Below, piece by piece: positions 6,971 through 57,870 of a stretch of 64,000 nt of DNA. The stretch lies in the NCBI GenBank assembly GCA_951406725.2, contig OX597836.1:14260001-14324000 (forward strand), written 5' to 3'. Source of the DNA: Octopus vulgaris. Taxonomy: Eukaryota. A program made the translations under genes and the position numbers. The notes beneath the pieces are model-generated. The model saw nothing but the letters and a program-made list of their open reading frames with translations. It had not been told where the DNA came from and ran no database searches. Position 1 is the first letter of the stretch, and each line of letters opens with the position of its first letter.

Positions 6971-8644
6971 AGGCAGAGAGTTGACAGAATCGTTAACTCA
7001 ACGAACTAAATGCTTAGCGGTGTTTCGTTCGTCTTTACGTTCTGACTTCGCCTCTCATACTTTCGGAGTCGATAAAATAAGTCAACGCTCTTCGACAGAA
7101 AAGATTAAAAGGGGGGAAAAAAGTATATACACATGCATGCATACATACACGGTGGACTTGTACTATCACAACCGCTGCCGCCGCAACCGCTACCATCGCC
7201 ACCACTTCAACCACTACAATGACCATTATCGCCACCAATACTATGACCACCACTATTACTATCAGTATCACCTCCTTAAATTACCACCACCACCATCACC
7301 GCCACTTTCACCACAACCACCACCTTCACCATCATCCCATCACCACCACCACCACCACCACCACCACCATCACCACCGCCACCATCACCACCACCACCAT
7401 CACCAACTCCACCACCACTACCATTACCACCACCTCCACCACCACCAACTCCACCACCACTACCATTACCACCACCTCCACCACCACCAACTCCACCACC
7501 ACCACCAACACCACCACCACCACCACCACCACCACTACCACCACCAGGTATTAATGCTTAAATACTTTCACTTGTTTTCTGGTCTGTGTGTGTGCGTGTG
7601 TATATTGGTGTGCATGTGTGTGTGTGTTCGTGCGTGCGCGCCTACTCGGGTGTATATATATTATGAGTGCAGATGTTTATGGTGTGTTTACATGTGTGTG
7701 TGTGTGTGCTTGCATACGTGTGTGCGTATGTGCGTGTGCGTGCGAGTGTGTATATTGTGGACACATGATGTTTGGCTCCTTGTGGATGCGTGTGTTTGAC
7801 AATAAAAGTTTGTATGGTTTGTATAATTAACTTTAGAACCAACCTCCCACACACATCCCCCTCCACTTCTGTCTCCTACTCCTCCCCCCTCTATTATTAA
7901 CTGTTTCCTATGGATAGTAACGTGTGGCACACCGCTACTTTGCCACTATCCCGCCACATACACCCCCACTACTAAACTACTCCACTACCTTGTCACCACA
8001 CCGCCTAGCCATTCCCGCCGCTAAACTACTCCCCATCACCAAACTCCCGTTGCCTGACCATCACACCGCCAAGCTAGCTCCGACAGCGCCACCTCACCTA
8101 GTCGCCCAACTATTTAGCCACCCCGCCAGAAAGACACCATACCACCCGGCCATCCCCTATCACCTAAGCACCCTAACACATAGCCACCTCACCACCACCA
8201 CCTGGTCACTCCACCATCAAGCCATCCTACCGCTTAACCACATCGCAACCCGACTATCACGTCATCTAGGCACCACACCGTGTGGCCCCACACTACCTCA
8301 CAACCCTATCAGCTCAGCTCCACCAACTTAGACACCCCACCTCTAAGTCCGTCTGTATATCTGTCTATCCGTCTGTCTGTATGTCTGTCTGTATGTCTGT
8401 CTGTCCAATTATACCTCCCCCCACACCTCATTCCATTCCTCATATTCCTTTCTCTATTGGTTGGTCTATCAGTTGACTGTTTATCGGGTCATCAGTTGAC
8501 CTTTATACTCCGAGTACTCCTTCCGTAATCCTGTCTATTATTCTATCAATTCTTCTGTCGATATGTCCAGACAAAACTCCCGGTCACTCCACCCACCGTT
8601 GTAGCCCTGACGTCATTGTATTTGTACATACATCCTTTTCCTAT

Positions 8645-8679
8645 GTTTCTGACGAAGAGCTCCGCTCGAAACGTTAAAT
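8645..8679 (+). ncRNA. Minimal type-I hammerhead ribozyme (Penelope-type)
   Basis: GUUU-CUGACGA-A-GAGC-ucc-GCUC-GAAAC-GUU-AAAU with palindromic AACGUU in place of stem III. Followed by a T-rich tail ending at (TA)n (~8780). Confidence 0.65.
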
Positions 8680-8773
8680 CCTCCTTCTTTCTTCCTTTTC
8701 CTGAGCGTCCAATAACACTATACTTGTTCCGCGTCCTTGCGTTGTTGTATTTTCTCTTTGTTCATGTTTGGAT

Positions 8774-21034: not shown

Positions 21035-21410
21035 ACCGTTTGTTTTTACTGTCCTGTTCTTGTTACCACTTTTACCCATCCACAAAAATCCCAAATTTTA
21101 TTTAATTTGCTTTGCGGGAAGGACTATTTCAACGAAGTCGCGTCTTGTCCTTACCTTCGGAGCGCGGAGTAGACGAAACAGGGACAACTGAAGAAGGGGA
21201 ATAGTCCTTGTGTTGTATGTCATGGAAAAGTTCGTTTCCATGCTTTTGTCTTTATATTTTCGTTTCTCATTGTGTTCAACGTTTTTTTGATGTCCTGTAC
21301 CCATATATGCATGTATTTATACATATAGATGTAGGTATGTACATATATGTATGTATATATGCATATATACAAATGCATATGTATCCATGAATCCTTTTCC
21401 AAGTAAGTTT
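21035..21410 (+). mobile_element. Non-autonomous ribozyme-bearing repeat, family A (retrozyme/Penelope-dependent-like)
   Basis: Colinear with 57337-57800(-): GTTTTTAC(T)GTCCTGTT, hammerhead, T-rich tail, GTCCTGTAC.CA, TAGATGTAGGTA.GTACATATATG, CCAAGTA(C)AGTT, then a microsatellite. Confidence 0.65.
21124..21199 (+). ncRNA. Candidate non-circularly permuted hammerhead ribozyme (family A, GAAA mutated to GGAG)
   Basis: CUAUUUC-aacgaagu-CGCGU-C-UUGUCC-uua-CCUUC-GGA-GCGCG-gaguagac-GAAACAG-GGACAA-CUGAAGA-A-GGGG. Homologous to the 57.6 kb copy with compensatory changes in stems I and III and in the extra helix. GUC triplet at 21142-21144. Confidence 0.65.
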
Positions 21411-32106: not shown

Positions 32107-32578
32107 ATAAATAAATTAAGTACCAGTTACGCACTGGGGTCGATGTAATCGACTTAATCCCTTTGTCTGTCCCCTCTGTGTTTAGCCCCTTGTGGGTAGT
32201 AAAGAAATAGATATTTCGGCTGCCGTTACGTTCTGAGTTCAAATTCCGCCGAGGTCGACTTTGCCTTTCATCCTTTCGGGGTCGATAAATTAAATACCGG
32301 TTACGCACTGGGGTCGATGTAATCGAATTAATCCCTTTGTCTGTCTTTGTTTGTCCTCTCTGTGTTTAGCCCCTTGTGGGTAGTAAAGAAATAGGTATTT
32401 CGTCTGCCGTTACGTTCTGAGTTCAAATTCCGCCGAGGTCGACTTTGCCTTTCATCCATTCGGGGTCGATAAATTAAGTACCAGTTGCGCAGTGTGGTCG
32501 ATGTAATCGACTTTATTCCTTTGTCTGTCCTTGTTTGTCCCCTCTATGTTTAGCCCCTTGTGGGCAATAAAGAAATAA
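32107..32578 (+). mobile_element. Tandem array (~2.5 units) of SINE family 1
   Basis: The same AAAGAAATAG|RTATTTCG junction occurs at ~32210 and ~32394. Confidence 0.85.
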
Positions 32579-37231: not shown

Positions 37232-37579
37232 AGAAGTCGACTTTGCCTCTCATCCTTTCCGGGTCGATGGAATAGGTACCAGTTGAGCACTGGGGTCGAT
37301 GTGATCGACTAGTTTCCTACCCCCATAGTATATGTATGTGTGCATATATGTATGTATGTATGTATGTTCTCGCAAAAACCAAGTGTCCCAATTATTATTG
37401 GTATAAATGCGAATTTATAATTTGGATATAGAAATGGAGGATTTTGAAACAGTTGTTTGTATTTGTCCTCTTTCTCATTGATTTTCTAAGAGATATTCAC
37501 GTATGTGTATGTATGTATGTATGTATGTATGTATGTATGTATGTATGTATGTATTTATGTATGTATGTATGTATGTATG

Positions 37580-37873
37580 TATAAAAAAATATATAAAATG
37601 GGACAAGAACGCAAAACATTCAAATAGACGATACGAAAACGGACGGATCATTCGAAGCCTCTAATCTTCAGTCAAGAACCGGATCATCCTCGCAATTTCG
37701 GCTAATTAATCTTGAGATTGCTCCGATCTGGCCAGCCCCAAGGAAAAACTAAGCTACGAGCATTAGATTTCTTGGAAAAAGTATCGAATGTATACGAAAC
37801 AAGGACAGAAAAACGGACGATGTTACACGAAAATAAATGCAAGAAGTAAAAAGTAATACGAATATAAATACAA

Positions 37874-37875
<2 letters not shown>
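37580..37875 (-). mobile_element. Non-autonomous ribozyme-bearing repeat, family B
   Basis: T-rich element between (AAT)n and (TATG)n with upstream hairpin CCAAG...CTTGG. A second copy lies at about 49900-50039. Confidence 0.6.
37655..37733 (-). ncRNA. Candidate non-circularly permuted hammerhead ribozyme (family B)
   Basis: Minus strand GGCCAGAUC-gga-GCAAU-C-UCAAGA-uuaauu-AGCC-GAA-AUUGC-gaggau-GAUCCGGU-UCUUGA-CUGA(AGAUUA)GA-GGCU. Stems III, I and II pair perfectly; AUC triplet; about 5 extra nt in the CUGANGA strand. Confidence 0.65.
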
Positions 37876-37946
<71 letters not shown>

Positions 37947-49764: not shown

Positions 49765-49984
49765 TTTGTATATACATATATGTATATACAAATAAATATC
49801 TGCAAATATAAAACCTTCCGAATTTCTGAGTACCTCATTTCTTCTAATATAAAATACCTGAACATCATCTCCAAACCTTCTAATATATATATATATATAT
49901 ACGTAAAAGTAAAAAAATATACAAACTGGGACAAGAACGTGAAACATTTAGAAGACGACACAAAAAACACAGACGGGACATTCG

Positions 49985-50039
49985 AAGCCTTCAATCATCA
50001 GTCAAGAACCGGATCATCTTCGCAATTTCGGCTGATTAA
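49985..50039 (-). ncRNA. 5'-truncated family B permuted-hammerhead copy
   Basis: AGCC-GAAAUUGC...UCUUGA-CUGAUGAUUGAAGGCU is homologous to 37655-37709. The strand carrying the cleavage site is replaced by (TA)n. Confidence 0.6.

Positions 50040-57202: not shown

Positions 57203-57870
<668 letters not shown>

Follow-up and report, generated by a model that had tools for sequence, protein, structure and literature searches.

A predicted type-SGC hammerhead variant near the 3' end of a Penelope-like repeat in Octopus vulgaris

Type-SGC hammerheads were defined, and shown to cleave, by Eckert et al. (2023; PMC10085705), who report 583 examples (HRIMA-1), none of them from the genomes of known organisms. 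Within the literature we searched, the term 'type-SGC' was found only in that paper, and no description of an SGC motif in any animal was found in the same search, outside which most subscription papers lie. The non-LTR retrozymes of animals (Cervera and de la Pena, 2020, PMC7229834; Li et al., 2026, 10.64898/2026.07.22.740005) are reported as non-coding tandem repeats of ~200–400-nt units, each with one type I hammerhead, a Penelope-like link and demonstrated circular RNA. Penelope-like elements are recognized by 5' truncation, tandem or inverted copies, a tail and (TA)n targets (PMC8557442; PMC11167929), and the hammerheads of their pseudo-LTRs are described as mostly minimal type I motifs, thought to be dimeric (Cervera and de la Pena, 2014; PMC4209133). 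Craig et al. (2021; PMC8557442) list eight Naiads with an unexplained 'half core', one of them from octopus. The octopus entry in their supplement ('HHR_half_core', row 45) could be an unrecognized permuted hammerhead; that supplement yielded no matching DNA strings for the half-core Naiads.

Here we analyse a hammerhead-type motif on the minus strand (37656–37731) of a 64,000-nt stretch of the Octopus vulgaris genome, called the window throughout. Read 5' to 3' on that strand, an upstream hairpin (37738..37775) is followed by a leader, GGCUGG (37732..37737), the first strand of an extra helix, P0 (CCAGAUC, 37731–37725), a GGA (37722..37724), stem IIIa (GCAAU, 37721–37717), C17 (37716), stem Ia (UCAAGA, 37715–37710), a 6-nt linker joining stems I and II that is equally long in lineages B, C and D (37704..37709), stem IIb (AGCC, 37703–37700), GAAA (37699–37696) and stem IIIb (UUGC, ending at 37692). 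There follow GAGGAU (37686..37691), the second P0 strand (GAUCCGG, 37685–37679, with one A-C mismatch against the first in this copy), stem Ib (UCUUGA, 37677–37672), CUGAAGA (37671–37665), the five bases UUAGA (37664–37660), stem IIa (GGCU, 37659–37656) and a U-rich tail. All of the strands named in a preliminary description of this DNA sit at these places. The conserved blocks thus appear in the order S (stem IIIa, the AUC triplet and stem Ia; 37710..37721), G (stem IIb, GAAA and stem IIIb; 37692..37703) and C (stem Ib and the CUGAAGA core; 37665..37677), which is the type-SGC permutation. The hammerhead core (C3 U4 G5 A6 N7 G8 A9, G12 A13 A14 A15.1, U16.1 H17) is intact in the window copy and is upheld by column counts over 124 copies, in which CUGA was part of the search anchor and G8-A9 lay outside it in the 6,335-match pattern described below.

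An SGC descriptor allowing 0–6 inserted nucleotides matched once in the window; 300 locally shuffled windows and 20,000 shuffled versions of the segment gave no match. It places the cut between 37716 and 37715, the very bond proposed in the preliminary description. Rfam gave no hammerhead match at the motif even at E<=10, a miss that is expected because covariance models cannot represent crossing stems; across the window, the 150 matches listed of 474 pair microsatellites with miRNA-type models. Nested folding is likewise uninformative, since the fold is doubly pseudoknotted: the nested minimum free energy (MFE) fold of the motif is ordinary (z 0.33) and prefers a competing helix.

Compared with HRIMA-1 as described by Eckert et al. 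(PMC10085705), the octopus motif has the same S-G-C order, core nucleotides, crossing stems I–III, short stem I–II linker and a fourth helix. It differs, however, in that the linker is 6 nt rather than typically 3, five nucleotides rather than at most 1–2 follow A9, and the fourth helix, which in HRIMA-1 connects stems I and II at their far sides, here extends stem III by way of a predicted kink-turn. P0 is thus connected differently from the 'I' stem of HRIMA-1, and the candidate helices formed by the 3' tail are inconsistent across lineages. Because both the core spacing and the fourth helix depart from the described form, we class the motif as a hammerhead variant and not as a plain member. 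The preliminary description had taken it for a class of RNA; its topology belongs to a class already described, type SGC, and is not new. Whereas HRIMA-1 is apparently reported from environmental sequence only, the motif described here occurs in thousands of animal genomic copies.

The repeat that carries the motif near its 3' end, family B, is Penelope-like, non-coding and present in many copies. In the window, the repeat occupies 37574..37893 of the minus strand and comprises the last ~320 nt of a ~820–870-nt unit, with 92% identity over 326 nt to the monomer at locus L020; its 5' end is lost within an (ATT)n tract and its 3' end runs into (TA)/(TACA)n. A second copy, at 49921..50039 (minus strand), is 84% identical to the first over 113 nt and, as the preliminary description had it, belongs to the same family, but it cannot be counted as an independent ribozyme because it is 5'-truncated ~6 nt downstream of the predicted cut and so lacks block S with the cut site. 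Elsewhere in the window we noted 2.3 tandem copies of a 184-bp SINE-like repeat (32161–32577) and, within another repeat, a type I hammerhead core of canonical order with its stem II (8630–8680, plus strand; CUGACGA ... CGAAAC); microsatellites dominate the remainder.

Genome-wide, a 261-nt query gave 3,966 first-look candidates in 2.8 Gb, 40 of which were scored and are 94–100% identical, while a pattern built on CUGA and the tail gave 6,335 matches (double counts included, 5 among the first 100 listed) against none in the reversed control. A pattern that excluded family B's stem III start reached diverged lineages (95 matches, none in the control), of which C and young D were sampled. Tandem units are ~670–870 nt long (most tandem spacings are about 650–870 nt) and carry one SGC motif apiece, though most family-B copies are solitary and truncated. 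The copies are truncated at the 5' end and end in (TA)n, and some are in tandem or have inverted 5' pieces; some also carry a 30–45-nt tail that is the beginning of the next unit, its motif being found by a strict pattern in 6 of 57 copies. Full tandem units contained no ORF related to a retroelement protein. We also observed higher-order arrays of D units and short truncated B units (~270-nt period) inside microsatellite tracts at L159, L148 and L109, and a lineage-D copy lying in the same orientation within the ORF of another Penelope-like element (L100, 1430–1700).

These traits, namely 5' truncation, partial tandems, 5' inverted copies, a tail, microsatellite targets and no ORF, are those of Penelope-like elements, and fit a non-autonomous member of that group. 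With the pseudo-LTR hammerheads of such elements (PMC4209133; PMC8557442) the family shares a motif placed close to the 3' end, truncation at the 5' end, copies in tandem or inverted, a 30–40-nt tail and (TA)n targets, but it has a full stem III within one unit where those are mostly minimal and thought dimeric. With the non-LTR retrozymes it shares a non-coding tandem repeat, one hammerhead per unit and the Penelope-like link; in contrast to them, its motif is type SGC rather than type I, its units are ~670–870 nt long, its copies are mostly solitary and truncated, and it is known here from genomic DNA.

An autonomous partner is only inferred. The copy at L014 is joined to a 56-codon reverse transcriptase (RT) fragment that is 88% identical to a family of intact ORFs with RVT_1 and GIY-YIG domains, but this Neptune-like family (L103 type, reached via L014) had no DNA in common with family B. 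ORF pieces near L016, L024, L042, L100 and L131 were considered as partners and rejected, as none adjoins the repeat unit and each looks like an independent insertion. Chimeric copies, in which family A pieces are joined to family B (L008, L017) or the RT fragment is joined to an inverted family-B piece (L014), suggest template switching within common machinery. In the 3' UTR of the intact Neptune-like element, a type I hammerhead-like motif read by eye (L103, 5570–5612, plus strand) carries U3 instead of C3 and A8 instead of G8.

Stems I, II, III and the extra helix remain paired in the family, with two-sided changes between sister lineages. With registers set by the core alone (cut = GAAA minus 16), the constant spacing of 16 nt puts stems I and III in register, and the fraction of stem I–III cells paired is 0.97, 0.89 and 0.97 in lineages B, C and D (81, 24 and 16 unique copies, respectively), against at most 0.52 in slid registers. 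Between lineages, two-sided changes occur at positions 4, 5 and 6 of stem I and at positions 2 and 5 of stem III, where one added pair in lineage D explains part of that lineage's differences. Stem II varies least, position 4 changing from U-A to U-G or C-G and a fifth pair being G-C or A-U in C. In a hand-picked set of 27 copies, two-sided changes affect 13 of 22 pairs, five of the seven P0 pairs among them, and the covariation score was reached by none of 500 shuffles, while a measure of 'further pair types' did not rise above shuffles (376 of 500); the rows compared are related sequences, and the D stem III and some P0 rows are off register. All three stems thus adjoin the core and covary. 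The pairings, whose loss from the family consensus would have spoken against the permuted-hammerhead reading and strand order of the preliminary description, are kept in B, C and D, and that reading gains further from the clustering of copy 5' ends at the predicted bond (below). The view that the fold arose by chance complementarity within a repeat might draw on the non-significant MFE z-score and on the non-independence of repeat copies, but it is extremely unlikely (very unlikely in the preliminary description), given that shuffles yielded no descriptor match and that all four helices show two-sided changes.

The extra helix prolongs stem III across an asymmetric loop in which three unpaired bases are followed by G-A facing G-A. 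We predict that this loop is a kink-turn, with a bulged strand at 37686..37691 (3-nt bulge GAG, then G1b A2b U3b) and a non-bulged strand at 37722..37724 (G3n G2n A1n). A standard kink-turn has, between its two helices, a 3-nt bulge and then G.A and A.G pairs in tandem (Huang and Lilley, 2016; PMC5061560); the same arrangement is present here, as read from the sequence alone, and its consensus is found in 109 of 119 copies (77 of 83 in B, 17 of 20 in C/E and 15 of 16 in D), the bulge staying at 3 nt in all three lineages for a stem III of either 5 or 6 bp. In family B, C:G at −1b:−1n and G at 3n predominate, both of which are reported to favour Mg2+ ion-induced folding (Huang et al., 2021; PMC8191799). 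Such a kink would bend the extended stem III back until its end lies at that of stem I; the two ends are joined by 0–3 nt. The extra helix, seen in the preliminary description as abutting stem I, is indeed its neighbour in the sequence, but the better reading makes it a continuation of stem III beyond the kink-turn. No natural hammerhead with a kink-turn was found in the literature among the matches listed, and the word 'kink' is absent, by keyword search, from the supplement text of Eckert et al. (PMC10085705).

Taken together, the motif is probably an SGC-order hammerhead that cleaves its own transcript after AUC, with a predicted kink-turn and five bases looped out after A9. That it is an active ribozyme of some form is predicted with still greater confidence and can be called very likely, since two of the other arrangements weighed below would cleave as well. 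In the mechanism we propose, transcripts of tandem units would be partly self-cleaved after AUC and the cut RNAs optionally ligated into circles, in the manner of retrozymes (PMC7229834; model in PMC4209133). An autonomous Penelope-like element would then supply the RT/GIY-YIG protein that copies cut, re-ligated or circular RNAs into (TA)n, with internal priming ~135–140 nt 3' of the cut. Run-off of the RT at a cut 5' end would produce copies that start at the scissile bond, and uncut or circular templates would produce longer and tandem copies. If the leader helix forms first during transcription, it would slow cleavage, which could account for most copies reaching past the cut.

The 5' ends of genomic copies bear on this directly. 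From 95 unbiased copies, taken in genome order and chosen without regard to the insertion stretch, 91 were mapped, four being dropped for want of a reference lineage. Four of the 91 begin exactly at the predicted cut and 57 reach past it; the truncation rate per 6 nt is 0.12–0.15 just downstream of the cut and 0.018 just upstream. Within the 3 nt up to and including the cut, six copies start where 0.9–1.6 are expected, the binomial windows having been picked post hoc and one of the three being weaker (−1..+1, P 0.013–0.086). We also counted by hand the junctions between (TA)n and the element over the interval common to two pattern searches (n = 149, duplicates removed). At the cut there are 28 junctions (two of them approximate); 13 lie in the 16 nt upstream, and the remaining 108 are unassigned or fall within 13 nt downstream. 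Of the peaks, the largest (36 of 149) is at an AT site 9 nt downstream of the cut, and other downstream peaks fall at an AT site (11) and a TA site (20); these peaks are driven by AT/TA microhomology, and the 5' junctions are strongly biased.

That bias is one argument for a structured relic, catalytically dead or with negligible activity, kept as a recognition signal for the retroelement protein, whose copies owe their 5' ends to microhomology, RT pausing or a cellular nuclease. The oversize core insertion and the 57 of 91 copies that extend past the cut point the same way, and in a Penelope-like element of Anolis hammerhead cleavage is reported to be dispensable in vitro, with no reads beginning at the cut (PMC11167929). 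We nevertheless regard such a relic as unlikely. An AT site 3 nt upstream of the cut, which offers 2 nt of microhomology, has one junction, whereas 28 are at the cut, where at most one base matches. Lineage D has 10 of its 31 counted junctions at the cut, none at the AT site 3 nt upstream and two at a site of the same context 12 nt upstream (the 31 being ATCTGC rows among the 100 matches listed of 130). Furthermore, conservation across lineages extends beyond the helices to the catalytic bases, with N7 varying. In lineage C no clear peak stood out at the cut (41 matches against 5 in controls, with few and noisy rows), and an AUA-triplet lineage was left uncounted because its cut site has 4 nt of microhomology with (TA)n. 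Copies that start at the predicted cut make self-cleavage in cells likely, and the cluster of 5' ends at a bond predicted from structure alone, the strongest functional evidence obtained, is an indirect sign of cleavage in vivo.

The main structural doubt, a different arrangement of the core, is raised by the leader, which is conserved and complementary to stem IIb in all three lineages and could act either as a competing helix or as an alternative stem II strand. The leader:IIb helix has 6 bp in B, 5 bp in D and 4–6 bp in C/E, and in the window copy its stability is −6.2 kcal/mol, against −4.2 for IIa:IIb. In a split core, GGCUG of the leader would form stem II in place of the downstream GGCU, A9 would have no link to G10.1, and the 'insertion' would simply be a strand leaving the core. 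In favour of this are the stability of the leader helix, its presence in the MFE fold and a lineage-level change from U-A to C-G in C/E; the helix also ends beside P0, where the far end of stem II is expected. On the other hand, the GGC of IIa is invariant in the alignment and stands a constant 5 nt past A9, and in C/E positions 4 and 5 pair in 21 and 17 of 26 copies with IIa:IIb against 18 and 13 of 26 with the leader. We know of no natural hammerhead broken at 9/10.1, and consider the split core distinctly unlikely.

Returning to an SGC core with stem II formed by IIa, the leader may be an inhibitory helix that forms first and is perhaps released by the conserved 3' tail (37641..37655, minus strand; GAAUG-CCCGUC motif), a role that would fit the 57 of 91 copies extending beyond the cut. 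The tail is conserved in B, C and D, and a partner for it is possible in either the leader or the kink-turn strand; such helices are plausible in B and C, and weak and inconsistent in D. The upstream hairpin, which the preliminary description gave as part of the architecture, folds in B, C, D3 and I copies and hence in most lineages, but is absent from young D.

The five extra bases (37660..37664), which most likely lie between A9 and G10.1, are constant in number and variable in sequence: the gap from A9 to GGC is 5 nt in 94 of the 95 unbiased copies. Known hammerheads, according to Eckert et al. (PMC10085705), carry no insertion longer than 1–2 nt next to CUGANGA, a rule that fails here, and 2-nt core insertions are reported to have impaired a natural hammerhead ribozyme (PMC3088659). 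The preliminary description left open whether the extra bases belong at N7 or after A9. Were they looped out at N7, the GA nearer stem II would be G8-A9, and a GA does occur within 0–1 nt of stem II in 84 of 95 copies, with spacing as in family A. But this second GA shifts register between subfamilies and is missing from 11 of 95 copies (including the recurring UUAAA, four copies, and UAAAA, three), while the first GA stands directly after N7 in 94 of 95 and the base before it is any of the four, as N7 should be. Since the first GA is kept, N7 varies and the second GA shifts or is lost, the five bases most likely follow A9, and a loop at N7 is very unlikely. Forms with 0–3 inserted nucleotides are rare (24 genome matches against 5 in controls); seven of the 24 are deleted family-B copies, and L266 and L270 represent a further SGC family. 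Pairing of the insertion with the 6-nt linker was considered and rejected, as it works in family B alone and breaks down in C and D.

SGC motifs with no insertion at all exist in the same genome (L239, L266). One family, A, is present in the window at 21125–21200 (plus strand) and 57615–57700 (minus strand), and also at L105 and L239. As the preliminary description stated, A and B lack primary similarity: one A copy has a local score of 20 against family B, with a shuffle mean of 19, and the other scores 29, on the pyrimidine-rich flank only. The identical architecture that was claimed for them holds for the strand order and the extra helix, but not for the linker (3 nt in A against 6 in B), the insertion (0–1 against 5 nt) or the junction motif. 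Family A usually has one base after A9, with none in L239, which therefore has a fully canonical SGC core, and its stem I varies in matched pairs between copies. Instead of a kink-turn, several A copies have AGUA facing GAA at the junction of stem III and P0, which we take to resemble a loop-E motif. A third SGC family, J (L266, 1440–1580, minus strand; L270, plus strand), resembles family B in stem III but has another stem I, of up to 8 bp, and 0–2 nt after A9, the core of L266 being canonical. Family J is a natural comparison for the family-B insertion.

Four features are new relative to the literature searched: abundance in an animal genome, an insertion of 5 nt, a predicted kink-turn and a 5'-end signature. 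If the reading given here is true, non-circularly permuted ribozymes would shift from a rare environmental form to a place among the commoner ribozymes of one animal genome, missed by Rfam and standard descriptors, and the hammerhead core rule would be stretched to 5 nt after A9. The kink-turn would be one way of tying stem III to stem I, a geometric problem akin to one that Eckert et al. (PMC10085705) pose, and copies starting at the scissile bond would provide a cheap genomic read-out of in vivo cutting by Penelope-like hammerheads. More tentatively, and with rather less confidence than an even chance would give, we suggest that Penelope-like repeats may have evolved a radiation of non-circularly permuted hammerheads, with A, B–I and J in one genome, in which the B group would have a kink-turn, possibly an L7Ae-type protein, tolerance of a 5-nt insertion and a strand-exchange gate formed by leader and tail, its in vivo activity being recorded in the 5' ends of its copies. 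If so, the hammerheads called 'missing' or 'half-core' in other Penelope-like clades may turn out to be permuted forms.
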